Source: Amphiscolops sp. MND2022 (lineage: Eukaryota). Taken from it: a stretch of DNA of 64,000 bases. A program made the translations under genes and the position numbers. Location: assembly GCA_964187785.1 (NCBI GenBank), contig OZ076409.1, positions 36,396,001-36,460,000 on the forward strand. Direction: 5' to 3'. The notes under the pieces are model-generated. The model ran no database searches and was not told where the DNA came from. It saw only the letters and a list, made by a program, of their open reading frames with translations. Below, one piece after another: positions 1 through 48,155 of this stretch; the stretch's first letter is position 1, and every line of letters begins with the position of its first letter.

Positions 1-651
1 ATATAAACTTTTAACAAGCCGTGAATGGCCCAAGTCGGTGCCCTGCTCGAGGTTGAAAAAGTGCAATGCTTTTTAAGTATGGAAAGGGTTATTATTGTGA
101 AAATTTTAACAATTTTTCCGAACGCAAAAATAGGACACCCAAAAGGGTACCCATCGGGAGACTCATAAAACTCGAAATCCGCTTTTTCCATATAATGAAA
201 ATTTTTTATTCGGATAGGTTTCTTACTGTCGAAATCTCAAAATTAGACCCTTAAAGTTCGCAAAACGTTCTTTTCAATAGTGAGGGAGTACCTTTTTACC
301 AAAAGAAAATTGTTTCTAAAGAAGGTCGCACGGTTGTCAAAAAAAAACGGTTCCGATCAGAAAATTCTCATCAGTCCCACGGGAGCAAAAAATAATCAAA
401 GAGGTGACTCATAAGAAAAACAGAGTGCCGAAAAAAAGCTACAAAGGAGGAAAAGCGCCAACAGGCTAAAGACGGCTCAAGCCGGCAACCTACTTGAGGC
501 TCACAAAACGCAAATGCTTTCAGATTGGTTCCATATCCGTATTTTAGACCAATCAAATTAGTCGCGTAGTGTCGAAGAAATCAAAACGGGATCCTTTGGG
601 CTCTCTTCAGTTCCACGTGGTTCCAGAAAAAAAAGTTCGCGAGAAAATTAC

Positions 652-2552
652 TGTCGCAGGCTGCCGCCTGTGATGGAAATAATTACACTACATCGGCAGG
701 GGAACAAAACTCGACACCAAGAACACTACCAATATACTGAATACAGGCTATGAACTTTAGAAACTTGTCCTTATTCAACGTTAGTTGTTATTTTACGTAT
801 TCATGCAATAGTTTTGTATTTAGATGAAGTTAATATTAGTCCGTTAAAATTGTACAATTTGGAAATATCCAAATTAGGCTACTTTGTAACAGTGTGCAGT
901 TGAAATGTAAATCGTTGAATCAAAAGCAGTACTAATAGAAGCAACTGTAAAGCGGTATAGGAAACGAGTTCAAGTGACGTTCAGCGATAATCCAAAAACG
1001 TCACTTGAGCTCACCTTTCTAACCAATCACAGCGCTTCAATTCACGAGTGCAATATGACTTTGATTTGGTAGTGGCCGAATATGGCCAATTGACTTAATG
1101 TCCACGGATTGTTTTATGCTTTGGTCAAATGGCCGATTTAGGCCGTCTTAACGTAACGAATGATGCTGAATTATTTGTACTCATAATTAACCATATTAGT
1201 TGGGGACTATTCTAGAAGTGCTTTAATATTAAAATAATACCAACGTACCCTTCAACAAGCCAAATGAACCGAGTGCTGATCAAAGGCCGGATAAGGCCTT
1301 TTACCCTTACTCCCCTCAGTATTGTGCTATTAATCAGGATTTGGCCAATTTCGGCCCTTTTAGGAAAAACCCTGTTTTAGTGATGCAATGATATTTAAAT
1401 AGATTGGGCATGTATTATTTGAACTTGCTTCCCCTACGTTGACTTATAGCCACGTGGTAGCACGTGCTAACACTGCATACCAGTGCTACGAGTCTCGCAT
1501 TCCATCAACAAGCTTAACATTTGTTGACATTGCAATAATAATATGTAGCATAGATATGTTGTTTGAAGTACCGTTAAGTGTATTTACCATTATGTCAATT
1601 GTTTGATGTTACATTTCGGGAGACAAATATGTCAGGAATTCTTCCAATCAGGATTTCACAGAAATATGTGATTGATGCTTTCCGATGATATAGAAAATAT
1701 GTAAACAGAGGTTCTTATGGTGCAGATACCTTTCAAAACCATACCTCTTAAATACCAGAGATATGTAAAAATCAAGTGCATTACATACCTTACAATGTCA
1801 ATCTTGGATGAAAATATGTAAAATATGTGAGTGTTACCCACTCAGGGGTATAAATAGTGTTTAGCCTGAGTAGGACACAAAAATCATATTAAACTACTCT
1901 AGAAAAGATTGATCTCCAAACGGCTTCGCTGTTAGTTCCGTATTGATTAATTTATTATTGATTCGGAACTGTTTCAATGCCCACCACTAGAAAGCAAGAA
2001 AGTCAAGAGGACTTAAGATGTTATCTGATATTGAAAATCTGGATATCATGTTAGTTGAGAACCGTTTTGGTACCAGAGAAAGAGAAGGCAGCTTGAATAG
2101 TAATCTACCTAGAAGATCTAGAAGATTTGCAAGTAATGAGTCTGAAAATGAAGACGGAAACATAGGTAGATCCCAGAGAAATATTGACTCTAGGATGAAT
2201 GCCGAATGTGACCGCAATTCTGTCACAGGTAATTCTAGCGCTGAAATAAACAGGTTGTCCAGCGAATTAAATTCTCGTATTTCGCGTGAAATGGACGAGA
2301 TGATGAATTCTGTGAGTGTCCAAATACAAAGAGCCATAAGCGATGCGATAAGAACTCAAGTGCTTCCTCAAATCCAAAATGTCATTATGGCCGGATCAGG
2401 ACATGGGACCAGAAAAGGATGGGACGTTCCGTCTGAGAGACCGCAACCAAATTCTGAAGTTCAGCGAAATCTTAACGCAAAGAGTAGCTTAAGAAATGAA
2501 CAGGATGAGAATCAATTCAACAATGATTACCCTGTCCTAAATGTTCATGACA
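652..2552 (+). repeat. 5' LTR (1901 bp)
   Basis: Near-identical to 14981-16885 (about 30 differences counted by eye). Starts TGTCGC, ends CATGACA. TATA-like GGGGTATAAATA near 1845-1856; paired CACGTG boxes at 1452-1466. Confidence 0.95.
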
Positions 2553-3679
2553 TGGTGACAGGAGACAACGAATCTCCAAATCAGGTTCCTGAGTTTCTCA
2601 CAGGACGTATTCCATCAAGAAGTCATCTCAACCAGTCCTTCGAGGACGTCAACCTTGACACGACGATCCCAGCGCACGAGAGAATTGCTACAACTGCAGA
2701 TCCTGACCCCATTACAAGACTGGCCGACGTCTTGACCACAATGCAAAGTAGACCAACAGCCCAACAACGCACATTACGCCCAGTCAACTCCAACACAATG
2801 ACTTTCGATGGCAAAAGTGAGAAATTCGAGCTGTTTGAAGATCTTTTCCATACCATGATCAAGATGCAGCCAGAAATGACCGAGCAAAAGAAAACTAACC
2901 ATTTTCATTCACTATTGCGGAAGAATGCTCTCCAGACATTCCGAATTATCAATTCGACAAACCGTCAAACTCTTGAAGACGTACTAGTCATTTTCCGACG
3001 GAAATACGTCAAACATGAGTCTCAGGCGACTGCCAAACATAAATGGCACCGTCTGGTCTTTGATCCCAATACGATGAAATTGCCTGACTTCCTTGAAGAG
3101 TTAAATCAAGGGGCAGAAAAGGCATTCGGAGACCATGCGCAGAAGTTGATTGACAGTTTGCTATACGCAAAACTGCCACCAAAACTAAAAAGGTCAGTCA
3201 ATATGGCCAGGCTAGAAAATGGCTCGTATGATGAGATAGTTGCTCATTTGGAGAGAGAGCTGGAGCTTAACGCCCTTGAGGAGTCAGACGATATACCGAT
3301 GGCAACAATGACCTCCTCAACCACTAAGCCCAAAACGTCTCTGTCCACTGGACAAATGTCAGACATCACTTGCAATTACTGCAAGGAAAAGGGCCACATG
3401 GTCAAGGACTGTGAAAAGCTTAAAAAGAAGAAAGAGAAAGACGCCCAACAAGGCAAGCCAACTCAGAAGAAAACATACCCGGAGTATGGCACCTGTGGCA
3501 AAAAGAATCACCCGGAGGAAAGATCTTGGCAAGGCGCCGGTGCACATCTTAAACCCAAACGCACTAGGCCCGAGGACTCATCTGACAAAAAGCCCAACCC
3601 AAAGGCTCAGAAACCTCAGAACAAGCAAACATCATCAAGCTCTCAATCCTCATCTTCTAACGACCAGTCAAAAAACTAA
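2018..3679 (+). CDS. gag: Gag (553 aa), begins inside the 5' LTR
   Basis: Retrotransposon capsid-like segment (TFDGKSEKFELFEDLF), CCHC knuckle CNYCKEKGHMVKDC, and a second decayed knuckle (YGTCGKKNHPEERS). Ends A-AAA-AAC-TAA. Confidence 0.9.
   Translation: MLSDIENLDIMLVENRFGTREREGSLNSNLPRRSRRFASNESENEDGNIGRSQRNIDSRMNAECDRNSVTGNSSAEINRLSSELNSRISREMDEMMNSVSVQIQRAISDAIRTQVLPQIQNVIMAGSGHGTRKGWDVPSERPQPNSEVQRNLNAKSSLRNEQDENQFNNDYPVLNVHDMVTGDNESPNQVPEFLTGRIPSRSHLNQSFEDVNLDTTIPAHERIATTADPDPITRLADVLTTMQSRPTAQQRTLRPVNSNTMTFDGKSEKFELFEDLFHTMIKMQPEMTEQKKTNHFHSLLRKNALQTFRIINSTNRQTLEDVLVIFRRKYVKHESQATAKHKWHRLVFDPNTMKLPDFLEELNQGAEKAFGDHAQKLIDSLLYAKLPPKLKRSVNMARLENGSYDEIVAHLERELELNALEESDDIPMATMTSSTTKPKTSLSTGQMSDITCNYCKEKGHMVKDCEKLKKKKEKDAQQGKPTQKKTYPEYGTCGKKNHPEERSWQGAGAHLKPKRTRPEDSSDKKPNPKAQKPQNKQTSSSSQSSSSNDQSKN
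2553..2564 (+). promoter_or_regulatory. Primer-binding site (tRNA-Leu-like)
   Basis: TGGTGACAGGAG directly after the LTR end; 11/12 match to the complement of a typical tRNA-Leu 3' end (TGGTGTCAGGAG). Lies inside the gag reading frame. Confidence 0.65.
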
Positions 3680-6600
3680 CTTCGCCACGACTCCAGTACA
3701 ACGAACTAATATCTGTCCGACAATACATCAGATCGGACCCTCCAACGCAAACCTTTCATCAATACAATCAGCAATTGATGGGCTATCCTCTATTGTCTGG
3801 CAGCAGCAGATGGAAAAAGCCACCATCATCACCTACAATAACACCCATTTGTTCCAGAAACCAATTCCTGCTTGGGACCCTGACTATACAACCACCTTCA
3901 ATACCCGGTTCAGGCCCATTCCCCTGATCGATGACTACAATCTAACATACATCGATCCAGACTATGGCAGAGATCCCTATTGGGACACCGAGCTATACAA
4001 CCAAGATCAACTGCAATTTCAATATGTCCTAGACGATATTGACCACTATAACAGAACAGTCCACGAGAACCCTCCAATTACCCATAACAAGAAAACACGA
4101 GCACTAATCGAAATCTGGCAAATGAATGATGGTACAAACCATCCAGTGTTCCCAAACCCATTGGGGACCGAGAACCCTGAAAACAGTGGTGAATCCACGC
4201 CACAATCATTATTAGATGAAAAACAATTCCAAAATGTACTCATCGCCAGAGATGGTGAACCAGACTGTATACCCCTGTCAACCAACATCAACCTCAAATG
4301 CAAGAAACGCATGCTTTATTTCCCAATGGATTTTGGGGAACTGACCATTGATGGATTAATAGACACTGGGGCACTGTCCAGTGCAATACCTGAAATGGAC
4401 ATCCGGAAAATCCGCCTCCTATCTCCACAATCTGTTATCCGAGAAGGTCCGCCTCCGAACTTCCAAATCATGGTCGCTAATGGGCAACTGGAAACTCCTA
4501 AGAGTACCATAGAGCTCAAATTCGAAGTTGGTGACACTGAGTTCCATGAAATCTTTATAGTAATGGAACATTTGACAGGACCAATCATTGGACTAATGTT
4601 CCTTCAGAGAAATCATACAGTCTTGGACATGAGACAAGGAATCCTGAATTTCCCGTTCTTTTCAATGCAGCTTAAAACAGCTGATCACAAATATTCCACC
4701 GTTCTAGAACCAATTCTCAACCCCTCTGAGATAACCATTCCGCCCAACGATAGAGTCCTAATTAGGACCAACTCCTTACTGTACCCTGAGAATGCGGTTA
4801 CTGGAATTTTTCAACCGAGCGACCTTCTACATGAAGAAGGCGACATCACATTTTGCCCAGCATTGGTCACTCTGAATGATGGCAATACAATGATACCAGT
4901 GAACAACTTCACAGACCATCCTTACAAACTCAAAAAGGGACTTCATATTGCCAATTTCTCAGTCATGACGCCAGAACAGATGAAATATGTCAAACCGGTA
5001 GATCCGGCATCCACCTGGCATGTTTTACAAAATGACCAAGAGCAGGCAGCCCACTATGTCAGCAGTCTCATCAAGACAAACAGAAACCCTCAAAATTCTG
5101 AAAATTACTGGTTCCCAACTCCAAAAAATCCTGGAAACCCCGAGGAACACACTCCAATACAGAAACGAATTCTACGAGAATTACAGGCCTTACAGGACCT
5201 GGAGACGCTCGACCCCACAAAAGATGAAGAATCGCGTGCAAAATTCCTAGAAAACTTTGATTGGAAAGACTCCACACTTACTCCTGAAGAGAAGGAGAAA
5301 GTCGAGGAACTACTTGTGGAATTCCATGATATATATGCACGACACAGATTTGACATAGGCATGAATGAGGAATTCAAGGTGAAATTGACACCTAAGGACG
5401 ATTCCCCAGCCTATAGCCAAAGCCTACCAGCCCCCATCAACCTGAAGGAGGACATCCTAGTCGAATTGGCCATGTTACACAAATATGGCATAATCACTAC
5501 CCTACCATTCTCGAAATATGCGAGTCCAATATTCGCACAAAAGAAACCGAATGGAAAACTCAGACTCTTGGTTGACTTGAGAAAAATCAACAACCTCATG
5601 TCCGATGATTATATAAACAATAATCACCCTGTCAGTACCTTGGTTGATGCCGCCCAACACTTGGCGGGCAAGAAACTGTTCTGTAAATTAGACTGTTCGC
5701 AGGCATACCACTGCCTGCCGATGGCTGACCAACGATCGATCGAAATGTTGGCTTTCAACTTTGCCAGTCGCACGTTTGCATACAGACGTTTGGCACAAGG
5801 TCTCAGCCGGGCACTGTCCGCATTCTCAAATTTCATGAGGGAATACCTCGACAAAGTCATTAAAGCGGATCAGTGTGCCCAATATGTCGACGATATCGGC
5901 ATCGCGGCCAATGATGCTGATCACCTCATAGCAAACCTGAGAGCTACGTTCAAATGCATTCAGGAAGCAGGCCTTAAGTTAACAATGCACAAATGTCACT
6001 TCGGTGCAAAAGAAATTGATTTTCTCGGACGGACTATTACCCCACAAGGCGTCAAGCCCCGGAAACAAAATGTACAAAACTTTCTGGAGAAAACCAAATT
6101 CCCGAAGTCGAAAAAGGCTTTACAGCGTTATTTGGGATTCTTGAACTACTACAGAAATTATGTCCCAAATCTTTCAGAACGCCTTGCTCCATTCTACAAG
6201 ATGCTGAAAAGTGACGGAAAGGTCCTGGTATCGAAAGAATTGGTCCAACAATTCGAGGAAATTAACAAAGCACTTGACAAATGTTGCGATTTGGCCCTAC
6301 AACAGCCCATTCCAAACAAGCAAATTGCACTAATGACTGACGCAAGCTTTGGAGCAGCCGGATATGCAGTCCTAATTGAAGACGACCCAAATCAGAAATT
6401 CACGTCACTCAGAAGGTCCTATGCACCTGTAGCATACGGATCCAATCTTCACCCCAGCACAGATCAAGATGTCAATTTATGCCCAGGAAATCCTTGCAAT
6501 TTATTTTGCATTCAAAGAATTTGGCCATATCGTCTGGGGTGCGCCCAAACCAGTCATTATCCTAACCGACAACAAAGCTGTAACACGATTTTTCCAAACA

Positions 6601-8879
6601 AAAATAATACCCCCAGCACTCTAGAATGCGTGTGATTTTGTGATCCAATTCAATTTTGTCATAGCGCATATCCTGGGGGCACAAAATACAGCTGCCGACT
6701 ATTTGTCCCGATTGGAAGCAGATCCGAAGGACAAATTAGTGATGAAAATTCGCGAAGATGTACAAACACTACCGATCGAAATCAATGTCCAATCTGCAAG
6801 GGTGTCACAAGAAGAACAAATCTTCTACACCACGACGACGATGAGACAGAAGAACAGTATTGGGCAAGAAAGGAAGCAATCAGGAAAAATCCAGCAACTG
6901 ATGAGCCCACTGTTACCATACAAACTCTGTCAACAAATCTGGTCAAGCAACACCCCGATATACAAGTCCGATTGAGGAAGACGAATCAGATCATTATCGA
7001 ACAATCCAAAGATGCGGTACTACAGCAATTGAAGGCAAAACTGCTTCATGAAGAGTATTCAGAAAATCTGCTGCAACAGGATGCCCGATACAGGCATTAT
7101 GCAAACAATCTGGAACGAATTGTACTGAAGGACGAAATCCTGACAAGGCAATATTTTGATGAAACAGGGAACGTTAAATAACATCAATTTCTGCTCCCAC
7201 AGCACTTACTCCAGGAAATGCTTCAGTCTCTTCAAGGGACGGCCAATAAACATCCTGGCATCTCAAAAATGCTGCAGGAAATCCGACAATGGTATTACTA
7301 CCCTAGCATGGCCAAACACGTCAAAAAATGGGTAGAGGGGTGTGAGGAATGCGCAAGAGACAAGCGAGCCCCCAACGCAACAATTACGCCTGAATTACTC
7401 AACTTGTCCGAATGGGACCTCGGACCTGAGGACGCCATGCAGATCGACCTATTGCCGAATCTTCCCCCAAGTGGTGGGTATGAAAACGTTTTAACAGCAA
7501 TCGATGTATTCTCCAGATATCTGTTCGCCTATCCCCTTACGGACGCATCAGCGATCAATGTAGCAAAAGCAATCTTTGACATCATGACCAAGCATGCATA
7601 TCTACCAACGACTCTCATTACTGACAAAGGTACTGCATTTACTTCTGCAATTATTGCGGAGATTACGCAAATTTTGGGCATAACACTCAAATGTGCAACA
7701 ACAAAACACCCGCAGACGATTGGGAAATTGGAACGAACTCATGCCTCAATGAAAACAAACCTCAAAATGGCATGTGGGGAATATCGCCGACAATGGCACA
7801 AATACTTGCCATTAGCAGTACTGAACCATAATACTAGTTATCACGCCAGCATCGGTTGTGAGCCGACGAGAGTATTCCATGGAAGAATTCCATTTAATAT
7901 CCTGGATCACAAGCTTGGAAACAATCCAAACGAGCAAATCAATCCCACAACCGAATTTGCTGAAGAAATCCAAAATTGGACAAAAATCTTGATTGTCAAA
8001 ACAAAGCAAAACATTATGCAGTCATATATCAAGTACGAAGAATATTATGACCGCAAGGCAAAAGCCGCTCCACTAAAAGAGAATGATTACTGCTTTGTAT
8101 TACAGCCGAAAGCGGATCACCAAGGATCAAAAATTCCATTCCGTGATTATAGGTGGGTCGGACCATTTATAGTCCAAAAAGTTTTACCTAACGAGAATTA
8201 TATTGTACGGCGAATGAATACAAACAAGACTCAAATTTTGCATCGGATTCGCCTTAAAAGGTTTGTCCCCAATCAACCGCTTGAGGACAATTTCCGAGAA
8301 CAGCGGTTACAACCTGACGAGGAAAATATTATTCCACAAGATGATATATACGTCATAACGTGGGAAACCGACTTTGGAGAGCAGCTAGTCACGAGAGGCA
8401 ACGAACCTACTACGACTAGCTTGCCGAACGGCGAACAGCCGAATGCGGCAGAACCGAGGCACAGTGACGTAGACGAGAACGAAAAAGATTACATCATCAC
8501 GAACGACGAAACAAACTACGCTGGAAATACGGCGTACGGCCGGAATGAAAGGTTAAATGATGACGTCACAAAAAGGAATGACGCTAGTGAAGCGACTAGC
8601 AATGAAGAACCTGATTGGCCGAATCCGGCCGTTTACCCAGGAAATCCAGAAAAATCCCCGCCGAATGCGGACAAAAGACTGAAAAATGATAAAAAGTTGC
8701 CTGAAAGAAACTTGACGAATGAAAACGATGCACGAAATTCTCCAAAAAAGGGGGATGATATTATCGTGCCCGAAATATCTGAAAACGATGCTAGAAATGA
8801 AAGTCTGAGCCCTAGAGGAGGGAAATATAATCTCAGACCTAATCCTAACCCAAACTACTCAGAAGACTTCAGATACTAG
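3670..8879 (+). pseudogene. pol: Gypsy pol (protease, RT, RNase H, integrase), disrupted
   Basis: LIDTGA protease (~4362), YVDD RT (5883), LMTDAS RNase H, H..CEEC zinc motif and QID/TDKG/LERTH integrase core. Lesions: frameshift ~6443, TAG 6622, frameshift ~6830, TAA 7179. Confidence 0.95.
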
Positions 8880-9117
8880 GAAAGACTGAATTCAGTTCAG
8901 GAGATGAGTCCTGAATTGGATTTTCCTTTTTTTATCTTTTCTTTCTAGTCCCATGAAGGTCAGTAGTTTTTGAATAAATAATGGGACTTAAAGGCGATCC
9001 CTTACAAAGAAGACAAATATGGGATCAGGGAATCAGAGAAACAAATGAGAACAAATAAAACAACAAAAGAAATGAACAAAAATTACAGTTTGAAAGTACA
9101 TAAATACATATGTACAT

Positions 9118-12100
9118 TTAATCTTTAGAAGTGCCAACAGGAGATTCTTCTACCACAGAGGAAGCCCTAGACCTCGAACTACTCTTTCCCATTCGTCTCC
9201 GTTTACGGTCACTAGGAGGCACGACTGCGGGCATTTCCCCGACACTGTAGGACCCTGTATCATCAAGGCTCCCAGTCCCTTCGCCCACCGCGGAGAAGGC
9301 AGAACGGTATAAAGCAACCAGGGTCTTGTAGATCTTGTTCCTAGCAAATTCGTCGACAAAGGTCCAAGGATCATATGAAGCAGATGAGGCAGACTGACTG
9401 AAAGAAGTAGAAAGGAGAGAGAAATTGGCCAAACTGGAATCGCTAGTACAGAAGGCAATGGAATCTGGAACCCCAGACAGATAACTCTGAGCAGGCAAAA
9501 CCACGTCCACGAGCTGGCTTTGGCAATTTGAAGTACTAATAGATCCAATACTCACAGTAGGGTAATGAGGGCTCTCGGAGGTGATGCACAAACAACTCAG
9601 TTTGAAAAAGTACATTAGATGGCTATGCTCTTGCATGAAGTCAAGGTTAACAAGGAAGTCGATGAGGTCTGGGGACCCTTGACTGACATCCAATGAAGGC
9701 AAAGAAGAAGCTTTAAGTTGGTCCAATAGCTCCACATACTCGTCTCGGCAGGCCGATTCATTCGCAGAACTGACCCAAGACCTTAACTGAAAGGTCCGGT
9801 ATAACAGGTCGAAGTGACGAAGAGCCACCTCGGTGGGCCTTTTCACCATTACGCATGGATCGAAAGCGGCAAGACCCCTGATAAGATTGGAACACAGGCC
9901 AGCTTGGCGAAGGATACCCCCAATCAGGAATTGAAGATAATTCTGGCAATCTTGAACAAAGTCATTCTTGACGGACACAGCAGTCTTCTGGATAGTGCTT
10001 TTGTCAGCCTTCTTCTCAGTAAGCACGCCCTCGGATCTCTGTTTACTGGCCTTGGTGACCTTGTTTTTCATATTCAGTCTTGTGAGGAATTCGTCAACTG
10101 GTAAAATTGTCCCTTCGCTGGTTTGGAAATTCAAAAGTAGAAACCATGAATTTTCAAGTGGGATGGTGTCCGAAGTGTAACAACGAAAGCAGAGTTTGTA
10201 GATATAGCGGGCGACCTCCCCGCAAAGATAGAAGGATGAATCTCTCCTCTTCTGCAAATTAGTGGTGAAGCTAGAGTTGTCTAAACATAGGACACTAACG
10301 CATATCAGTTCAAAAGGAATAACCCTGGCTTATCCTAATATACTAACAATCACTGATGAGGTGATAGAAGAATTCGAGCTTCACGGGGAAGAATTCATCA
10401 CAGATGAGCAAACCACTCAAAACTCTGAACCTGGAACAAATAGGAGTATTGACGGACCTATGATATTCTCCCCTTTGACAAAAGGAACTGGACCAAGATG
10501 GGATTACTTACTCTTGTCCTGACTCCCTGGCCCTGCTGTTTGGCAGAGTGCAAAGTGAGGAAGGAAACCACAAACTTCCACTCGTCCATAAGTTCCTGGC
10601 ACAAGACAGGCAGTGTGGAGAGCTCCAGATCACTCTTAGAAATCGCCTAAAAGAAACACGAAACGATCAAACGACAAGGCTTGAAAACTCTGACTGATAT
10701 AAACTTGTTCTGACGCCAAGACAATAGAAATCACTTACTTTAGCTAGAACGGGGCTGCGCTGTACCCAGTCCTCATTTGCTGATCCGCCCAAGGAAATGA
10801 CCAGGACACGGAGTACCGAAAAGAAGTCTATGTGCCCAAAAACACTGTAGCTGCTTTTGTGCATTAGTTTCGACAAATTGAGCCGAGAGAACCTGAAGCA
10901 ACTCTGGACAGCTCGCACGGAAGTAGGGACCTCGTCAATGGTCCGGATTAGCTCAGACGGGCATCCGGAACAAGCCACTATATCTGCTTTTGTAGATATG
11001 GACAATAACAGGCGTGCCAAGGAGCCTAGTTCTCCAGTGAGGTTAGTCGTGGGTAGACCACTACGGCAAACGATGACTTTGCATAGGTACTGGCCTTTCC
11101 AGAACCTCGCCGACATGAAACGGTTGGGTCCCTGGTCCTCGAATTCCAAAGCAAAGCACTGCAGGGTAGAGATCTGATCAGCAATGTCGCTCATGGCACA
11201 GTTGAAGAGATGTTGGAATATGACCTAGAAAAAAAACCAAGAGTACAACCACTTAGGGAAGGGAGATAAACTCGAGGAAGAGGAAAGCAAAAGATACTTA
11301 CAGTCATTCTATCTTCTCCCCAGTCAAAGTCACAGAGAGAAGCTTGGTGGTCAGTGAATGAGCTGATTTTGGCCCACATGCTTCGGAGGATTGCAATGTC
11401 TCCATGGCTCTGGATGAAATCTGCCACCATGCTTAGCTGGGTTCGCGCGCGAGACTCGGGGGATATTAAAGGGGTAGTCCTGCCCCGCACGAAATCCTCG
11501 TAAAAGGGGAAACGTTCCCCAATATCAACCAACTCCACGTTCATAAATTTGGGGAGTTCCTTAGCTAGCTCCATCTTGCTCAAAATCTTTCCGTTCCTGC
11601 CTCGGACGCGGTGTTGGGTTTTGAGTGTGACGGAATCGGTACTTTTCAAATGTTCGTACCGCCATCTCTGGTCTCGTCTAAGATGCCTTTCAGTCCGATG
11701 GTGCCTGAGAATTTCCATTGTCCCTTCACTCCGAATGGAAAAGTTTTTCTTGCAGATATGACACCAGACCATATATGGGTTGTGGATTGGATCTGCCGGA
11801 CCTGAAATGAAAGACCGAGTCCACCCTATTTTAGCGAAGAACTCCTCTCGCATTGGGACCCCGCGTTGAGACTGTCTCTTAGCCTTTGGTGTCTTCTTGG
11901 GCTGAGTTTTACTTTTGGCCTTTAGTGTCTGTTCCTTCACCTCGGACAAGGTAATATCCTGGCTGCTCCGATCAGTTTCTTGGCTGCCCTGTTGCAAGAC
12001 GTCAGGCTGTGCCGTGGTCGAAATGATCTGGATTGGGGCCTTGAAGGTGGCAGAAATTAGGGCCATTTCACCAGCGCTATCACTCTTTCCAAACGAGGAG

Positions 12101-13008
12101 GAATCGCCTAAGCCTCCATAGTCAGTGATGGCCTGGTCTTCTGAGTCGATGAAGGGCGAGTCGCCTGTTTCAGCGTCACTTGAGTCACTGTCTACACACC
12201 TAAAGGGAGTCTGCGCTCGTGACTTAAAATGACTGGTTCGCGAAGGAGCAATTGTTGGCCTACCTCGAACAGCGTCCAAAATCATCCGTTCCATTGTGCT
12301 ATGGGACATTCGGAGTGTTTCATCGGTCAAGACACGCAATAGATGGTACACTTGGGACTCCGTGAAGGTGACTGCTGTTTGTCCTGGTGGGATCCGGAAG
12401 GCGTTTGTCTCATCGAAATAAGTTTTCAAAATAGCCCGTGCTCGACCAGAAAGTTCAGAAGGCTGTGAATCAGTACCCCGAGAAGTGGATGCAACCTTTC
12501 CAGGCTGTTGTTGCTGGCTGAGGATGGTTATGTCAGGATGGTCACTAGTTTCAGCCCCGGATTCGGATATCCCGGGGATACCTCCGTATAGGGAAGGGCA
12601 ACCGCCACTGCTTGTCTCCTCGGTTGTCTTCTCTCCCTCACTGAAATCAGCCAGGAATCGCACCTTGGGCTCATGCGTGGGCAACATGGGAGCCTCATAT
12701 ACGGAAGACTCGCAATCTTCATCATCAACCAACTCTCCAATCTTTGAAGCGGCAGCCTCAACTTGTACAGCAGGAAGAAGCTCAGATAGCTGGGATTCGG
12801 GATTATTGACAACCATTAACCCTGATTCCAAAGCATTTAGGCTAGTTTGTGACGCACCTGCTGCATCAATCAGTATTGGGGTGCTGGACCGGACTGGGAC
12901 TAGAGACAGGGGAGTTTGGTCTCCAGTGGGAGTTTCAGTACTGGTCGTGGTCATGGTATGATCCACAGAAGTTGGCTGTTCTTGTGACTGAGGTCTTTCA
13001 GCCTCCAT
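9118..13008 (-). CDS. Antisense five-exon cargo gene, ~1,190 aa BED-finger / hAT-transposase-like protein (one 1-nt lesion)
   Basis: Exons 13008-11302, 11224-10739, 10646-10512, 10430-10348, 10280-9118. Introns of 77, 92, 81 and 67 nt with GTAAGT (x3) or GTTAGT donors and pyrimidine-rich YAG acceptors. Splicing joins three computed ORFs in frame, except one extra base near exon 4. Zinc finger WCHIC...RHHRTERH. Confidence 0.8.
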
Positions 13009-14310
13009 TTCGCGTACTTGGCCTCTGCATATATGTTCACATCCTCACTTTCAACGCTTGGAGGGGAAGTCTCAGATCTGATGACACTTGTTGTATTTGG
13101 AACAACACCTCCTTCAGGAACTGTCTGGAGTAATCCGGAGGGGTTTGATGTAGTCCCAACTTCCAAAGTCTGATTATCAAAATAGAAAGAGATAAAATTG
13201 AGCGGTATGCTTCCTTAGAAAGAATCCATTTTACCGCGTTAAAAATCTTCCGGAAGTGATTCGAAAATTGAATGAAGCGTGTTTTCACGTGTTTAATTGT
13301 TGGAAACAGGAAGCGTTATGTGAACGATGTTTGGCCCTGATCAAGCTAAACTTGTTCAAAAGAAAAATGAGGAAGTCAGACCAACCTGGATTACAAGACA
13401 TGTTTTGTGGTGATGTCCGTACGGCAACAGTCCAACGTGGGATGATAGAAGCGTAAGAAGTTGGTCAAACTCGGCTTGAAGATGGAGACCTGGGATACTC
13501 CGACGAAGTGGGAGAACAAGGATGAGAAAGGAGCCGGATAGGGACGAGTAGTAGTCAATTAGATGTGAAGGATGAAACAAATAAACAACGAATTGGAATG
13601 GAATTGAAATAGGGTAAAGCAATTGGAAAATTGGAGTTCGTGGCAGAAGAAATTACCAGACTAATATTATTTGATTATTTACATATTTAAAATTGTGCAT
13701 GGAATCTGCCAGTGAAATGTACAACGACCTCTTCATTATTTACAGTTTACTTACTCAGTGGCCATTTACTGCCGGTTACCCTGTTTTGTTTCACCGTTTT
13801 GTTCAGTTGCCGTGGTTACCTTCAATAGGAATTTTCGCCATTTTGGAATTATTTAGATTTTTATTTGTCGCCATTTTATTATTCTTTTTTCAAATTATCG
13901 AAGCTTGGCTCTGATTGGTTGAAGCCATTACGAGAAATTTTGGTGACGCGTGCCGTTAATTGCTTACAAGCGACCCGTTAATTACCCACTTGAGACTGGT
14001 GTAGTTGATATTAATAATTCAAGCGTCATTCACACCTCTCATAGTGACGATGCTGATGAGGGGTAAACACTGAAATATCAAAGGGTGCCGACTAGTCATG
14101 AAATTCCATTCAGGAAAGTTTACGACGGATCAGGACGACCAACCGAAGTTTTAACCGTCACATTGGAAACTTCGGGGAAACACCTTACTCGGCTAAATTC
14201 TTGGATCTGATAAATTCATTCTACCCTAAACTTCATCACGATCCAGTTGCATCTACAAGCTTCAAAATAGCGAAAAAAGCCATCATGAGGGAATACAATC
14301 TCGCAAGAAG

Positions 14311-15069
14311 TTGTTTGACTTAGAAGAATTCGACTCGGATGGCTCTGAGAAATCTGTAATCTACATATCAAGCAGCGAGAGCGAAGCGTCGGACTGGGAG
14401 ACGGATTGTTCCACCGACACGGAGCAGCTGATAGCGCGGATAGAGAGAGAAGTAACATCTAGCCCTATGCTCATTGGGGGCAGGGTAATGACATCGGAGA
14501 AACCAGAAGAAGATGTGTCAGTGGCTGGACCAAGTACTTCTGGTGCAAATGCTGAAAAGTCGCCAAAAATGGACCATAAGTACTTTGACCTAGAAAGGTG
14601 CTATGCTCCCCCTAAGAGGATGGAAAAGTCACGCATCGAACTATGCAATACAATCTTGCCAGCCCTAGAGTCCCCGATGTCGCCACCAGACTATGAAAGG
14701 GGACCGAGTCAAGATACCCCTCTAGTCCAGCCATCAATGAACGGGTTCTATGCGTCCTACCACATCCAAAACACCAGGCCCTATGACAATCTGAGCAGTC
14801 AGAGATACACTGGGTGCATGGTGTGTGGGAAAACAGTGGACTTGATTAAAGACGAGAAGATCAATTGGTATATGGAGAGATCAACGCCGCGCGGAGAACC
14901 CGAATTTGTCATCAAACTGAGACGAGAAGCCTACATAAACGGACTGAATGCAGGTAGTCTACTTTTCATTGCTCCCGCAGTGTCGCAGGCTGCCGCCTGT
15001 GACGGAAATAATTACACTACATCGGCAGGGGAACAAAACTCGACACCAAGAACACTACTAATGTACTGA
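14311..15069 (+). CDS. Orphan cargo ORF (252 aa) ending inside the 3' LTR
   Basis: Long open frame with an acidic/Ser-rich N-terminus and a CMVC motif. The last 89 nt are LTR sequence. Start uncertain (TTG; out-of-frame ATG at 14285). Confidence 0.6.
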   Translation: MFDLEEFDSDGSEKSVIYISSSESEASDWETDCSTDTEQLIARIEREVTSSPMLIGGRVMTSEKPEEDVSVAGPSTSGANAEKSPKMDHKYFDLERCYAPPKRMEKSRIELCNTILPALESPMSPPDYERGPSQDTPLVQPSMNGFYASYHIQNTRPYDNLSSQRYTGCMVCGKTVDLIKDEKINWYMERSTPRGEPEFVIKLRREAYINGLNAGSLLFIAPAVSQAAACDGNNYTTSAGEQNSTPRTLLMY

Positions 15070-16885
15070 ATACAGGCTATGAACTTTAGAAACTTGTCCT
15101 TATTCAACGTTAGTTGTTATTTTACGTATTCATGTAATAGTTTTGTATTTAGATGAAGTTAAAATTAGTCCGTTAAAATTGTACAATTTGGAAATATCCA
15201 AATTAGGCTACTTTGTAACAGTGTGCAGTTGAAATGTAAATCGTTGAATCAAAAGCAGTACTAATAGAAGCAACTGTAAAGCGGTATAGGAAACGAGTTC
15301 AAGTGACGTTCAGCGATAATCCAAAAACGTCACTTGAGCTCACCTTTCTAACCAATCACAGCGCTTCAATTCACGAGTGCAATATGACTTTGATTTGGTA
15401 GTGGCCGAATATGGCCAATTGACTTAATGTCCACGGATTGTTTTATGCTTTGGTCAAATGGCCGATTTAGGCAGTCTTAACGTAACGAATGATGCTGAAT
15501 TATTTGTACTCATAATTAACCATATTAGTTGGGGACTATTCTAGAAGTGCTTTAATATTAAAATAATACCAACGTACCCTTCAACAAACCAAATGAACCG
15601 AGCGCTGATCAAAGGCCGGATAAGGCCTTTTACCCTTACTCCCCTCAGTATTGTGCTATTAATCAGGATTTGGCCAATTTCGGCCCTTTTAGGAAAAACC
15701 CTGTTTTAGTGATGCAATGATGTTTAAATAGATTGGGCATGTATTATTTGAATTTGCTTCCCCCTACGTTGACCTATAGCCACGTGGTAGCACGTGCTAA
15801 CACTGCATACCAGTGCTACGAGTCTCGCATTCCATCAACAAGCTTAACATTTGTTGACATTGCAATAATAATATGTAGCATAGATATGTTGTTTGAAGTA
15901 CCGTTAAGTGTATTTACCATTATGTCAATTGTTTGATGTTACATTTCGGGAGACAAATATGTCAGGAATTCTCCCAATCAGGATTTCACAGAAATATGTG
16001 ATTGATGCTTTCCGTTGATATAGAAAATATGTAAACAGAGGTTCTTATGGTGCAGATACCTTTCAAAACCATACCTGTTGAATACCAGAGATATGTAAAA
16101 ATCAAGTGCATTACATAGCTTACAATGTCAATCTTGGATGAAAATATGTAAAATATGTGAGTGTCACCCACTCAGGGGTATAAATACCGGTGTTTAGCCT
16201 GAGTAGGACACAAAAATCATATTAAACTACTCTAGAAAAGATTGATCTCCAAACGGCTTCGCTGTTATTTCCGTATTGATTAATTTATTATTGATTCGGA
16301 ACTGTTTCAATGCCCACCACTAGAAAGCAAGAAAGTCAAGAGGACTTAAAATGTTATCTGATATTGAAAATCTGGATATCATGTTAGGTGAGAACCATTT
16401 TGGTACCAGAGAAAGAGAAGGCAGCTTGAATAGTAATCCACCTTGAAGATCTAGAAGATTTGCAAGTAATGAGTCTGAAAATGAAGACGGAAACATAGGT
16501 AGATCCCAGAGAAATATTGACTCTAGGATGAATGCCGAATGTGACCGCAATTCTGTCACAGGTAATTCTAGCGCTGAAATAAACAGGTTGTCCAGCGATT
16601 TAAATTCTCGTATTTCGCGTGAAATGGACGAGATGATGAATTCTGTGAGTGTCCAAATACAAAGAGCCATAAGCGATGCGATAAGTACTCAAGTGCTTCC
16701 TCAAATCCAAAATGTCATTAAGGCCGGATCAGGACATGGGACCAGAAAAGGATGGGACGTTCCGTCTGAGAGACCGGAACCAAATTCTGAAGTTCAGCGA
16801 AATCTTAACGCAAAGAGTAGCTTAAGAAATGAACAGGATGAGAATCAATTGAACAATGATTACCCTGACCTAAATGTTCATGACA
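14981..16885 (+). repeat. 3' LTR (1905 bp), contains a dead copy of the gag 5' end
   Basis: Matches 652-2552. The gag-like frame from 16351 is interrupted by TGA at 16444. Followed by the ATTAC TSD. Confidence 0.95.
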
Positions 16886-18797
16886 ATTACTAAACTTTTA
16901 TCTCGTAGTTTTAAAGAAGTTCAAAAATACTTAGGACCCTTAGAATGTGGGTTAGACTTCTTACTTGACGTAAGGCTTTGTACTAAGAAGCTGAACAAAA
17001 AGTAACTAGTCTTTTTAGAAGTTTGCTTTTTTCAGTAAGGGCCGACTAAACCCACGTGGAGGAAAATGACCTCCTGCATAGTGCCGAATTTTATCGCATT
17101 TCAGAAGAAAACACACCTTCTAAAACATTTCCTCTTCAACAACTGCATAATGAAATTTTCAGTTGGGTTGCACTTTTTTCAAACATCTCCTCAGCCACAA
17201 TAAAGAGCTTCAGAGGACTCCTAGCTGCCATACGAATCACATTAAAATAGAAATTTGATTATTATGTTGAATCAACATGTGGAAACTAAAAATTCAGAAT
17301 AAATTTTTTCAGGCTCTTTGATTTCTTGGATGTAATCAACAAAAAGGACGTTCTGCAGTCAAATGGCCACGATAATTTAGTTTACTCTCAGTGAGTAACT
17401 GGTCAAATCCTGTTTACCGAGATTTAGCCGGAGAAAAATGGGTCAGGTAATTGCTGTTAAATTTGTTTAAAATGTATCGGATACTTGGTATTTACTAATA
17501 ATTGTTTAAACCCGATTTTTTCCAGAACCTTATAACTTCGTGAAAGTGACTCGCCAAACAAGCAATTAAACGAGTAAGTCAAGAAACAAATCTAGATAAT
17601 AAGTCTCTCCTCTGCAGAAGAGTCGTTTCCTTTTTGGGAATTGCTCCTCCTTTCAATCAATTTTAAAAACGGGGCGGAAATTCTGCCATTCATACAGGAA
17701 GTTCGATTTTTTTGCGAAATAGCAGCATGTCTGCGAAGTTGATTATACAGGGATGATCAACTCCGCTGGAAAGTGTTGGGCGAGAGAAGAAAGAGCAGAG
17801 CTAAGACCATGTGCTACTAGGCAGAGTGTTATTCTGCACAGTCGGGGTTACTTTCAGAGATTATAAGGAGTTAGAACAGAGTAAAATAAAAAAAAGAGGT
17901 GAAGCCATTAATTCTTGGAGACAACATAAAATTTGGGTGCATCGCCCGGAAATTGTCGACATTTGCCTTCTTTTGCTCTCTCTTTATTAGCGGGGAATCA
18001 ATTTACAATCACCCGCACATGGCTCTGAATTTTGCAAGGGTTTTTTGATCTAGTACTCTTTTAATCGCATTAAATCGAAATTATTGCAGTTTTCTCCCGG
18101 ATCTCGTTTCCCCTCTTTTCCCGGCTGTGAGCGGAAACGAACGAAATGCTGTTTAACTTTCACACATCACTGCCCAAAATGTAACGCGATCGGTAACTTT
18201 TATTGTATTTGTCAGACAGTCATCAAACAGTGGAAACCAGTTAACGTCTCCAGAGATTCGTGGGCGTGGTTGAAGACATCTTCAACGGACGGGTACAGAC
18301 CTGAATTGGGTAGATTATCCTGACCATCTAGCTCCTTATCTTTACAGCACATACGTCCGAGGATAGCCACCATTACGCTTCCTTATCTCAAATTTCACCC
18401 ATTGGGAGTCTTATACGCAGGTTAATTATACCTCGCAGAAACTGGCTAAAGGAGATACGCCTAAAATAGTACAATTCCTTGTACTAGTCAAAATCCACAT
18501 CGTTTTAAAATTCCAGCAAACATCTCTACTTGACTAAAATTTTTTGGACACTGATAATATTCGGCTGAAGAAATGTCGGATTGGTTGATCGACTGACCGA
18601 AAAGATACTGGATTAGCCGAGGTGCACATTGCAGATTACATTGCAGATTTAATTTGCACACACAACAATAGACCAAAGCAATTTGACTCTAATTATATGA
18701 CCGTCGTAAATCAATGACAAAAGACAGAGACTGAGTTTACTAGCACGAAAACAGCAGCAGACTATTGGAGCAAAAGAGAATATCTTGAGGGGCGAGG

Positions 18798-29030: not shown

Positions 29031-30822
29031 TGGTGACTAAAAATGTTAAAAACGTCCAAAAAAGAAAGAATTTATTGTCCAAGAGATTTTTTCGAGGAAA
29101 CAAATGCAGTTTTTCATTGAATATTGCCTCAAATTGAGACTGAAATTGACAAAATTTTTTTAAAAAACTGCGACAAGTTTTTTGCAACTTTTGACCCACT
29201 TTCGATAGTTTTCGAAGCTTAGATACGTAGATCGTTTGCATAGGTACAAACAATAAACAAGAAAAAAATCGTTTTCCAGTAGACTTTTGAGAATAGATGA
29301 ATGCATTTGTTGCAAACAAATGCCTCGTAACGACGCCGAAAAATCCAAAAACATTCAGTTTTATGTCGATTTCTATACAATTTGTGTACAATTTCACAGG
29401 TTAGAGGGTTCGAAACAATCAAAGATGAACGATCTAGCTTTACAGTACGCCTTTTTGAATAAAAACTTGCAGTGTTTTGCTTCGACAACATTTCAGGAAG
29501 GCACCAATGAGACGAAAAATTGCGGAAGTTCAGTTCTTTGAACGTTTTGTGGTTAGATAATTGGAACCGCTCAAAAGGGACTTAAATTGTTATCCAATAC
29601 GTTTTTTTGAAGAGATATCCGCATGCTTATGTCAGAAAAAAACTCGAAAACTTCAACTTTGTCTGTTCCTTGTGCTTTTTGTACATATCTGAATAATTTT
29701 TCGTTAGTTAGAGTGTTTGATAGGCTCCCAGCGGGTTATCGAGCCAAACAGTACGCCTTTCAGGAGAAATTTTGCAAGTTTTGGGTAGAAAAAAACAGAT
29801 TGACAAAAACAGTTTAAAATCGTAAACTATTTGAACACTCGAAACGTTTGGACGTTTTTTAAAAACAAATTCTGTCAAATTTTCTAGAAATTCTGTCTGT
29901 TGAAAATACGAGAACAATCAACAACAAAAGATGGTGACTAAAAATGTTAACGTCCAAAAAGGAAAGAATTTATTGTCCAAGAGATTTTTTCGAGGAAACA
30001 AATGCAGTTTTTCATTGAATATTGCCTCAAATTGAGACTGAAATTGACAAAATTTTTTAAAAAACTGCGACAAGTTTTTTGCAACTTTTGACCCACTTTC
30101 GATAGTTTTCGAAGCTTAGATACGTAGATCGTTTGCATAGGTACAAACAATAAACAAGAAAAAAATCGTTTTCCAGTAGACTTTTGAGAATAGATGAAGG
30201 CATTTGTTGCAAACAAATGCCTCGTAACGACGCCGAAAAATCCAAAAACATTCAGTTTTATGTCGATTTCTATACAATTTGTGTACAATTTCACAGGTTA
30301 GAGGGTTCGAAACAATCAAAGATGAACGATCTAGCTTTACAGTACGCCTTTTTGAATAAAAACTTGCAGTGTTTTGCTTCGACAACATTTCAGGAAGGCA
30401 CCAATGAGACGAAAAATTGCGGAAGTTCAGTTTTTTGAACGTTTTGTGGTTAGAATATTGGAACCGCTCAAAAGGGACTTAAATTGTTATCCAATACGTT
30501 TTTTTGAAGAGATATCCGCATGCTTATGTCAGAAAAAAACTCGAAAACTTCAACTTTGTCTGTTCCTTGTGCTTTTTGTACATATCTGAATAATTTTTCG
30601 TTAGTTAGAGTGTTTGATAGGCTCCCAGCGGGTTATCGAGCCAAACAGTACGCCTTTCAGGAGAAATTTTGCAAGTTTTGGGTAGAAAAAAACAGATTGA
30701 CAAAAACAGTTTAAAATCGTAAACTATTTGAACACTCGAAACGTTTGGACGTTTTTTTAAAACAAATTCTGTCAAATGTTCTAGAAATTCTGTCTGTTGA
30801 AAATACGAGAACAATCAACAAC
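29031..30822 (+). repeat. Tandem duplication of a ~0.9-kb non-coding unit
   Basis: 29031-29931 and 29932-30822 are near identical; the spurious ORFs are duplicated with a ~897-nt offset. Confidence 0.92.
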
Positions 30823-33800
30823 GAAAACGTGATACTAAGTAGACTCTTTGTACAAATGCGGTTTCTTGTAAAAACAGGTGAATCAAAGCGACCCCAAAAC
30901 AGTCAAAATTTTCCAATTTTGGACAGTTCCGGTGATTTTCATTTCAAATTAGGAAACTTCGGCGAGTTAAAAGCTTGAGAAAAACAAAACGATATGTCTA
31001 GTTCGCATCACGCTTTTTAAAGAGAATCTTCATGATAGAAAAACTAAAAATTACCACAGAAAGTTCAGATGGATCCAGCTTACTTTTTGAAAGCTCAACA
31101 GCGACTGAGCTCGGTATCCAGTAGTAGTTTTTGTAGGTTGAATCACAATTTCCTTATAGAATTTTCCTCAAAAACACCGCAAAGTCAAAAAAGGTCGAAA
31201 AACTGTTTTTTGACAAAATAGCCACTTTGCCTTCACTTCACAATATTGTTTTGTAGATTAGAACTTCCATTGACGTGAACACTGAAACAATAGGCTATTC
31301 AAACCGCCCTTTGGGAAAAAATGGAGGTTTATATTTCGAAACTTCTCATTCATCGACCACAATTTTCCATTTCTGTACTATTCCTGAAATTTTCTCGAAA
31401 GAAAGTACATAGAATCAGAATTGAACCTTGAAGCTACCAGTGCTGGTCTGTAAAGGCATTTGCACACTGCAAATGAATTTCAGAAACACTTAGAAAAAAA
31501 ACTTCCTCAAAAACATAGGTTTTTTGGCGTGTTTCCTAAATTTTTTGTTTTCATCAAGAACCAAACGAAATAGCTACCAACGCAGTACGCAAAAAGAATG
31601 GAAGTTTTCCAGGTAGCAACAATACTTGTTGTTACTTGTGGCCTGCATTATTGGAGCCTAACGAAAGTTATTTAGGATGAACGAATCTAACAGTTTCGTG
31701 TCTTTGGTCTACCTGCGGGTATAGACCTACTGGTTGGTCTAAAACGATAAGGCAATCAATTTTACGCGAATGATTTTTAAAACTAGGAACAAAATTGGGT
31801 ATTCATCTTCTGGAATCAGTCTGCCGGAGATCGGCTAACTGGTCAACCATCTCTGGTGAACCTTTGATTTGACAAACGCACAATTCTGCCTCTCTACTTA
31901 CATCAACTTGTATCAACGTACTTTTCAACATCAACGTCCATTATTTCAAAATGACTGTCTTTCATTTTCAAAACAAATTTCTTTGCGCAAAGATTGACAA
32001 CGGGAGCCAAGCATAGAAAAACATACCAACCTAGCTCCTTTGGAACACCTTGAACATCCGCACCACAGTAAACAATGCATATGGTGATATCAGATGGCAT
32101 AAGATCGAATATGGCTATATACCGCGTGATTATTCGAGCTACTTCTTCTGTTCCGCAAAATCCAAAAAAATTAACTATGCCAAGTGAGACTGTCTGTTTA
32201 GAAACATACATATAGATTCCCGGGAAAATTATTTCCGTCGGAACTGGTGCTTTCGTCAGATGAGATTTTCAGTAAATCAGATCTCTTTCGGTTTGCGTCG
32301 ATATGCTTAATCAATGTGACCATCTTTTGATTTTCAGTTCCAATTTTTTATTCTACTGTGTTGGCGGTAACCTTGTCTTATTTTAACGTCTCATACATAC
32401 TCTGCAGCCTTTCCGATTTTACAATTTGATTTACAGTGAGTCTTTCGTTGAAAACTAACTTAGCCTTTTAAAGTAAACCCTGATCAGACTTTGCAATTTT
32501 CCTTAAAATTATTTCGCATTGATTTTCAGCTCGAAATTCCTGTTTCCCACACATCAACCTGCTGAACACTGGCGATATTCCGTTTTTCTTCCATATATAA
32601 ACGTAATCAGATACCCTCTCTCGCTAGCCTTCTTAGTAACCCGATACTCTATATGATCTTCGCTAATTGTGACAAGCTCAGTGCTGGAACTTTCATTTTC
32701 ATCAGTCATTCTGAATTTTTATATGTGGCAGCTACTCTGAAAATATAATTCTGGTGTTGTGTGAACTGTCACAAGTGGTGGGGCAAAACCGTTTAACGGT
32801 GAAATGAAGTTAATAAAAATCGCACTACCAACTTTCAGTGGTAATTACAGTAAGCGGATTCCATTTTTTGACTTATTTCACAATACCGTTGACCAAAATC
32901 AATCCCTCAGCAGTATTCAAAAACTACATTACCTCAAAACATCATTGAAAAGTGAACCTGCTCGTCTACTCTCGCAATTACCAGCAATGAGTGCTAATTA
33001 TGCAGTTGCCATCCAGTTGTTAAAAGAGAGATATAATAAACGAATGATAACACATACTCACCGGGATGCTCTTCAAACTCAAACCACTGAGCCGTGAATC
33101 ATCTGATCAAGAACGCAAGTTTGTTAGCGTATGAGTAGATAACACAATGGCACTCGAAGCAAAGGGTATGGACAATCAAGCGTCAGATTTCATGAAGGTA
33201 TTCTTCATCGCAATGAAATTAGATAGCGAGACAAGACGGCAATGGTAATTGCATACCACTGGCGATGGTGTTCAGACAATGGCATCCATGCGACAGTTCT
33301 TAGAGGAACCTACCCGAGCAGTAGACTTTTCTGCAATGTCTAGAAACAGCAGCGGAAGGAAACGTCAAGTGACAAAGAAGCTCGACTCTGTCATACAGGA
33401 GCAGAGTCGACTACGAAGTGTCCGAACCGCAGCTCATGCAATGTATCGTATCACTGTGACCAATTCAAGGCTCTCAGTTTTGATGAAAAAGTTGAATGTG
33501 TCAAGACCAACCACAGTAAACAATGCATATGTTGATATCAGATGGCATAAGATCGAATATGGCTTTATAACGCGTGATTAATCGAGCTATTTCTTCTGTT
33601 CCGCAAAATCCAAAAAAAATTAACTCTGCCAAGTGAGACTGTCTGTTTAGAAACATACAAATAGATTCCCAAAAAATTGTTTCCGTCGGAACTGGTGTTT
33701 TCATCAGATCAGATTTTCAGTAAATCAGATCTCTTTCGGTTTGCGTCGATATGCTTAATCTTGTGACCATCTCTTGATTTTCAGTTTCAATTTTTTAATC

Positions 33801-36800: not shown

Positions 36801-37663
36801 TGAATTTTTATATGTGGCAGCTACTCTGAAAATATAATTCTGGTGTTGTGTGAACTGTCACAAGTGGTGGGGCAAAACCGTTAAGATGTAGATATAAAAC
36901 TTATTGAAAAAAATCTCGATTCTCAACCAGAATTGCTCTCGATTCTCGACTATTTCTCGGAAACTCTGATGACCGGACCATTCTTGCTAGCACAGCCCAA
37001 AATGCCAAGTGCCCATCAGAAAGTCTACCAATCTTGTCAAAGACTTGCCTGTCTTCAGAACCTTGTAAGACAAAAGAAGAAAGTTTGAACGTTATTCCAG
37101 ACACCTCCGATCAGATGTTGAGATGTGATCGCCTTTGCAACACTGAACCTAAATTCAGTAGATATGGAGAGGTGTGCAAATCCAATCCAGCTCAGCCCGG
37201 TTCAAGGACTTTGCAGCAAAAAGATTGGCTCTTCCTTTAGGGGAGATGTCGCCTCGTCTCCTATATAATCTAACATCGTATGTTATAATCTTATGTTTAT
37301 GTTAATTTGCATGATCAGTGCCCTCAATGTTATGGACTTCAATTGAATCTTTGATGCAATGATTTCCTCTTGTCTAGAGATACGACACTCAGCTGTTCCA
37401 ATCAAAAAATGGTGAGATTTCTTAAATTCTGTTCAAATGAACATCATGCAATTAATCTAAAGTTAACCAAAAGTTCATTTCGTCATTCATTCGTTTATTC
37501 ACTCATGATTCGTTATCTGTACACATTTGTTAGCTCTTTCATAGTTTTTGTGAATTTCTCTATGTTCATTTTTGTGCGGCAAAACGAGTTTGTTCATACA
37601 ATTGAATTCAAAACTCTAATCAAAGCTCTTCCAACATTAGAAAGCAGTACTTACAATATTTTT

Positions 37664-37681
37664 TGGTGCCGCGACCCGGGA
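37664..37681 (+). promoter_or_regulatory. BEL/Pao primer-binding site (tRNA-Phe-like); second copy at ~35017
   Basis: TGGTGCCGCGACCCGGGA resembles the complement of the tRNA-Phe 3' end (TGGTGCCGAAACCCGGGA). Confidence 0.6.
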
Positions 37682-37699
37682 CTCATTTACAAGCAGAAA

Positions 37700-47932: not shown

Positions 47933-48155
47933 AATTGGTATGTTGTAAATTGAGTCAATACAATGTTGACAATCTGTCTGTTGACAAATGAGTCTTTAAG
48001 TCAATAAACTGACTGTCCGGTCTCTATATAGTGCGTCCGGTCTCTATATAGTGCGTCCGGTCTATTAGGAAGGTTTTTTCAATTGTCCGGTCTATTAGGA
48101 AAGTACCGTAGTCGTAACTAATTATTTTTCAGACATCAGCTAACTTAGCTTTTGT

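Follow-up and report, generated by a model that had tools for sequence, protein, structure and literature searches.

A spliced, selected antisense gene of probable hAT transposase ancestry in a Ty3/gypsy retrotransposon family of Amphiscolops

What is a gene with introns doing inside a retrotransposon, on the strand opposite to the element's own RNA, and where did it come from? The question is raised by a 64,000-nt window of the Amphiscolops sp. MND2022 genome (contig OZ076409.1, positions 36,396,001 to 36,460,000), in which a Ty3/gypsy long terminal repeat (LTR) retrotransposon carries such a gene, here called the cargo gene, between its pol region and its 3′ LTR. A preliminary description placed it at 9400..11780 and took the protein to be hAT-derived and domesticated by the retrotransposon. 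There is a gene at that place, but the extent given was too short: it runs on the minus strand from 13229 to 9118, in five exons. It is a stable, selected, spliced accessory gene of a gypsy-type LTR retrotransposon family; the hAT origin is probable only, no single test having reached significance.

The layout of the family is constant. A genome search with the last exon gave 133 scored matches at 63–100% identity out of 7451 first-look candidates; the first number is a lower bound on the copies present, and the second does not equal copies. Distant queries picked up further subfamilies. Among 40 loci chosen to span the divergence (20 of the 133, and 20 from the distant-query searches), the integrase adjoins the cargo gene in opposite orientation in all 40, and a second accessory gene, open reading frame X (ORF-X), is present in 39. 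In the window ORF-X (14305..15069, plus strand) lies between the cargo gene and the 3′ LTR, into which it extends; it has a Ser/Pro-rich N-terminus, a conserved H and CxxC (H178, C196, and C199, all invariant), and no Pfam match. The reverse test gave the same result: cargo gene and ORF-X were both found in 20/20 elements picked by their integrase, from 150 listed matches, each with 94% or higher identity to the integrase in the window and thus from a single clade. Position and orientation of the cargo gene are constant in 60/60 loci, at identities of roughly 30 to 100%.

The gene is also under purifying selection. The median ratio of nonsynonymous to synonymous substitution rates (dN/dS) is 0.03–0.15 in exons 1C, 2, and 5, for unsaturated pairs only (dS>0.15; 32/136, 24/91, and 12/66 pairs); medians for the six closest pairs are 0.29 and 0.55. 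With at least 133 last-exon copies and this selection, the gene is more than a product of chance. Its splice sites are kept as well, with AG ahead of exon 2 in 39/39 mapped copies and GT behind it in 38/39. Since the gene is antisense to the element RNA, its introns would be expected from established LTR biology to survive reverse transcription. Intron 4 is precisely absent in 4 of the 14 loci examined (L121, L122, L125, and L128), one of which also lacks intron 2; such losses in an antisense gene suggest recombination with cDNA of the gene's own mRNA. Two proteins from other sources (P0008 and P0081) are uninterrupted across the intron-4 position. No copies without intron 3 were matched, in a weak test with one degenerate pattern.

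A protein library contained 560 relatives at E≤0.001; ten of these that were looked up all come from ENA. Three were compared with this genome: one is 100% identical, while the best matches of the other two reach only 42% and 29–31%, so that other organisms probably have members of the family as well. No relatives were found in the JGI metagenomes or IMG/VR. The full-length spliced protein was not found in protein collections, where one search gave eight proteins that read through or end at introns, and another last-exon fragments only.

All of the peptides quoted in the preliminary description are present on the minus strand. Exon 1 (11302..13229) encodes an acidic N-terminus rich in S/T/E/P, as had been said (39% of the 370 codons before the finger region), followed by the BED-like CxxC…HxxxxH finger that had also been recognized (11766–11683, with WCHIC at 11766–11752 and RHHRTERH at 11706–11683). 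Its zinc ligands are nearly invariant across copies (C 33/33, C 32/33, H 33/34, and H 35/35), and it is the best-conserved part of the protein between clades (62%, vs 29–38% for exons 5 and 2). Exon 2 (10739..11224) would encode an RNase H-like core, with putative strands 1 (11161–11135, QCFALEFED) and 4 (10981–10958, IVACSGCP), ARFW at 11110–11099, the equivalent of a CxxH motif (10909–10889), and an invariant Trp at about 10768. After exons 3 (10512..10646) and 4 (10348..10430) comes exon 5 (9118..10280), an all-helical region that includes FVQDCQNYL (9960–9934), LIRGLAAFDP (9885–9856), an hATC-like helix (9666–9586, with LIDFL at 9666–9652 and HLMYFFKLSCLC at 9621–9586), the region where the catalytic Glu would be expected (9585–9559), and, close to the C-terminus, a basic RKRRR motif (9207–9193). 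The window copy is defective, with an early in-frame stop and a frameshift near 13020 (exon 1 is broken twice) and a frameshift within exon 4. At 13380–13400 on the minus strand is an ATG conserved in both clades, five codons ahead of a donor-like CAG/GTTGGT; clade B has an acceptor-like site just past the main ATG and in frame with it. The ATG and its donor-like site suggest a short upstream exon or an upstream open reading frame.

Is this protein derived from a hAT transposase? Several indications, each below significance when taken singly, make that ancestry probable. The putative order of BED-like finger, RNase H-like strands, long helical insertion, and hATC-like C-terminus would be that of hAT transposases (Hermes; P52rIPK/ZMYM1-type; Buster/FAM200/GTF2IRD2-type), with motif spacing near that of a hAT reference set. 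Exon 2 is predicted to form helix-strand-strand-strand-helix-strand-helix-strand, an order that fits an RNase H-like fold. The exon-5 model (predicted local distance difference test score, pLDDT, 81) aligns with Hermes (8edg_A) over 180 residues, model 1–298 on Hermes 367–609, a weak match; the remaining 49 matches listed in that comparison have alignments of 44–91 residues. In hhalign comparisons of single exons and concatenated exon blocks with 11 host hATs and 74 P52rIPK-type hATs, exons 2 and 5 each had their best local match on the hAT segment where it would be expected. Among 30 ESM hits, 24 were Dimer_Tnp_hAT clusters and one more was FAM200/GTF2IRD2-like, with scores of 0.92–0.93; by ESM the Buster type is the closest hAT subgroup.

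A number of tests gave such an ancestry no significant support. Pfam scans of exons and alignments gave no hAT, BED, or TRP28 match above the cut-off and no PF05699 match to the cargo protein, and zf-BED matched 1 of 22 (E 0.51). The hhalign E values against hATs, 0.04–0.55, are no better than those of reversed or block-shuffled controls, and a profile comparison bearing on the RNase H-like fold scored the same z as the negative control (2.3). The exon-2 model has a pLDDT of just 43.6, with Hermes at a Foldseek E of 2.1 and outside the VIA top 50. Of the structural resemblance that the preliminary description anticipated, the weak placement of exon 5 on Hermes was seen, but no clear match was found for either model in PDB or BFVD (Foldseek) or in VIA. 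The distance from the cargo protein to hATs is also far greater than the distances among hAT subgroups. As to null results of other kinds, Hermes was not among the matches listed in one structure search, and the ESM atlas gave no lead for exon 2. Sequence searches of PDB with four queries (A1, A2, A3, and A6) gave nothing significant, but this search has little power, since a true hAT (P0207) found no PDB relative either.

The catalytic residues were compared in a register set by eye, for which known hAT motifs and those of the hAT set served as guides. On this register the first-Asp column reads E in 10 copies, A in 14, and V in 3, and the second Gly in 27/27; strand 4 has no Asp in 40 copies. 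The Glu column is acidic in 0/56, and lies in a proline-containing loop that is non-helical in the model. The CxxH place reads SxxR (S 24/27, R 27/27). The substitution of the catalytic Asp positions proposed earlier is thus borne out as far as this register goes, but an invariant Glu, E27, is close to the first catalytic site. It is one of four acids in exon 2 that are each invariant in 27/27 (E27, E65, D97, and D133). The strand-1 register is moreover ambiguous: hhalign pairs E27 with the glutamate of the hAT DE, and weak integrase superpositions of the exon-2 model begin at model 20 / integrase 57. One metal ligand may therefore remain. Provided that the protein is a hAT derivative and that the by-eye register is right, it is very probably catalytically dead. 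The Kat1 transposase requires both DDE and CxxH, the latter for hairpin formation (PMC4763223). The absence of terminal inverted repeats noted in the preliminary description held up in the window, with no inverted 13-mers (≤1 mismatch) between 8880–9117 and 13231–14980, against 0–1 in 10 shuffles. Because the terminal repeats are lacking and, on the register used, the DDE triad and CxxH as well, the gene does not itself belong among the hAT elements.

What might the protein do? Its anatomy (finger, acidic N-terminus, and basic C-terminal motif) is, by analogy, that of a transposase-derived transcription factor. A non-coding cassette common to both clades lies upstream of the start codon (13230..13400; 34/40 loci), with a CAGGTTGGT word at 13380–13388, a TGATCA palindrome at about 13337–13345 (33/34), and a CTTCCGGAAG palindrome at 13247–13256; TTCCGGAA is found in 29/34. 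The two palindromes may be binding sites of the cargo protein, or promoter sites for host factors. The BED domain of Hermes binds a quasi-palindrome (PMC10368747). Cargo gene, integrase, and ORF-X have co-diverged into two clades. Within clade A the cargo gene shows no linkage to ORF-X (rho 0.09) or to the integrase (rho 0.11), and it diverges to about 70% identity while the integrase stays at 91%; in clade B its rho with the integrase is 0.65. One copy has 95–98% nucleotide identity in the cargo gene yet a different LTR, and another shares ORF-X and LTR at 96–98% but the cargo gene at just 66–70%. Because the gene reassorts with LTR types and is unlinked from ORF-X in clade A, a family-specific LTR target is unlikely and the target would be common to the family or in the host. 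Strict binding to a cognate LTR is rejected, and the proposal that the LTR is the binding target is weakened. ORF-X, which follows LTR type better than the cargo gene does, may be an LTR-specific regulator.

With these observations in mind, we suggest that a transposase lost its own ends and, if the alignment is right, its DDE and CxxH residues, while selection kept the finger and the helical scaffold. The product would be a nuclear, probably dimeric DNA-binding factor working in the manner of DREF or ZBED, with the BED-like finger recognizing a site conserved throughout the family, for example the palindromes that lie 5′ of the start codon of the cargo gene itself. The acidic disordered N-terminus could then recruit activators or counter silencing, so that the element and the divergent ORF-X stay transcribable. 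That the cargo protein is a DNA-binding activator or anti-silencing factor has, we judge, about an even chance of being correct. The joint proposal stands slightly above even: that an LTR retrotransposon lineage (class I) domesticated a hAT transposase, its catalysis lost, as a sequence-specific anti-silencing or targeting factor beside a second accessory gene, aiding very high copy number, and that the intron-containing antisense gene has been kept until copies are about 30% identical and is present in other assemblies.

Among the alternatives, an ordinary hAT nested in a single retrotransposon copy might be suspected in a genome with many true hATs (150 scored PF05699 matches), but the fixed layout in 60/60 loci at such varied identity, the missing terminal repeat pair and PF05699 match, and the co-divergence with the integrase rule it out for practical purposes. 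A more substantial possibility, though an unlikely one, is a real accessory DNA-binding protein of other origin, derived from a host zinc-finger gene or from some different DDE lineage with an insertion domain, whose hAT motifs are look-alikes; against this, three methods (ESM, the Hermes structural alignment, and hhalign) point to hAT and to the segments expected, in their proper order, and the motif spacing is close to that of hATs. The four invariant acids and the ambiguous strand 1 could also be read as a reduced or rewired active site, serving the element as a nuclease or end-processing factor. This is very doubtful, given a strand 4 without Asp, the non-acidic, proline-rich, non-helical Glu position, and the loss of the CxxH that Kat1 needs for hairpins (PMC4763223).

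The cargo protein might instead act in integration targeting or tethering, its finger binding host DNA or chromatin while the protein contacts the element integrase, steering insertions as accessory targeting proteins of other transposons do. Transposase scaffolds handle target DNA; the gene was retained in every integrase-picked element, is not tied to LTR or ORF-X type, and shares with the integrase the deep split into two clades and, within clade B, the linkage described above. The lack of linkage in clade A, with the cargo gene diverging far more than the integrase, and the need for a separate mRNA speak against this role, which we regard as improbable.

Comparable genes are known from plants. 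The antisense aORF-3R genes of plant Ty3/gypsy elements include Retand TRP28 (PF04195), maize Grande gene23, and that of RIRE2 (PMC11963269; PMC7264820). In Retand elements antisense ORFs are typical between pol and the 3′ LTR, with TRP28 in 97% of clusters; the word “intron” does not occur in the available text (PMC11963269). The cargo gene shares with these the antisense layout, the pol–3′ LTR interval, near-universal presence in copies, conservation, and a proposed role as a nuclear DNA-binding regulator; the Grande gene has its own promoter. It differs in its animal host, in its length (about 1,200 codons) and four introns, in its probable DNA-transposase ancestry, in the second, sense accessory ORF of its carrier, and in having no TRP28 match in Pfam scans of exons and alignments. 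By analogy it works in the manner of aORF-3R genes and, probably, of hAT factors that have been domesticated. DREF is a transposase-derived host DNA-binding factor, and in such host-domesticated hAT factors DNA binding is kept while catalysis is usually lost. The same is described for ZBED proteins (PMC10368747). Unlike either, the cargo gene is kept by another mobile element and amplified along with it. Hermes and other hAT transposases lack its long disordered N-terminus and extra C-terminal segment, and have the conserved DDE/CxxH and terminal inverted repeats that it does not.

VANDAL elements encode anti-silencing VANC proteins that co-evolve with family-specific targets; the cargo gene, unlike these, reassorts with LTR types. 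PMD domains, common to plant gypsy and MULE elements, are likewise carried by transposable elements of classes I and II and tied to silencing control, but are not transposases, and their capture by MULEs from host genes has been inferred (PMC5418596). A review gives the origin of aORFs as unknown, finds them without similarity to other transposable elements, and judges derivation from these unsupported (PMC7264820). Two papers on large elements and accessory proteins (PMC6431247; PMC13547354) do not, in their available parts, describe an LTR element with a gene derived from a hAT, and one on LTR abundance (PMC9911081) does not use the word “antisense” there; no such gene was found in the part of the literature that was covered. 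To the antisense accessory ORFs of plants this family adds one from an animal, for which a candidate origin can be traced. If the hAT origin is true, one class of transposon has domesticated the enzyme of another, and the reason why retrotransposons carry antisense genes becomes directly testable, in a family that has many young copies, introns that record what happened to the gene, and candidate binding sites that can be named.

The carrier is gypsy-type both in its ends and in its domain order of gag, protease, reverse transcriptase, RNase H, and integrase. Its two LTRs (652..2552 and 14981..16885, plus strand) have TG…CA ends, differ at 30 of 1902 aligned bases, and are flanked by a 5-bp target-site duplication, ATTAC (647..651 and 16886..16890), within the 4–6 bp of such elements. 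The gag frame (1991..3679, plus strand), with a CCHC knuckle, begins in the 5′ LTR, runs for about 187 codons there (1991–2552), and continues across a TGG at 2553 resembling a primer-binding site; the 3′ LTRs of other copies contain coding sequence homologous to this LTR-embedded start. The pol region (3312..8879, plus strand; protease, reverse transcriptase, RNase H, and integrase) is interrupted in the window copy. Between its protease and reverse transcriptase, at about 4720–4990 (plus strand), is a segment similar, by eye, to the dUTPase-like domain present in certain gypsy elements; it has no Pfam match. The stretch just 5′ of the 3′ LTR (14955–14980) has no purine-rich tract, being pyrimidine-rich and encoding part of ORF-X. 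Many integrase matches in the genome are within reading frames that stay open for about 1,735 codons, which indicates that the family was active recently. True hAT elements are also numerous in the genome, several with open frames of 600–700 codons.

Two host genes lie elsewhere in the window: one long frame encodes a SelO adenylyltransferase (48144–50084, plus strand), and the other gene is represented by an exon with a PTB/PID domain (58911–59738, minus strand). There are also tandem duplications at 32000–38400 and 29050–30350, with units of about 2.64 and 0.9 kb.
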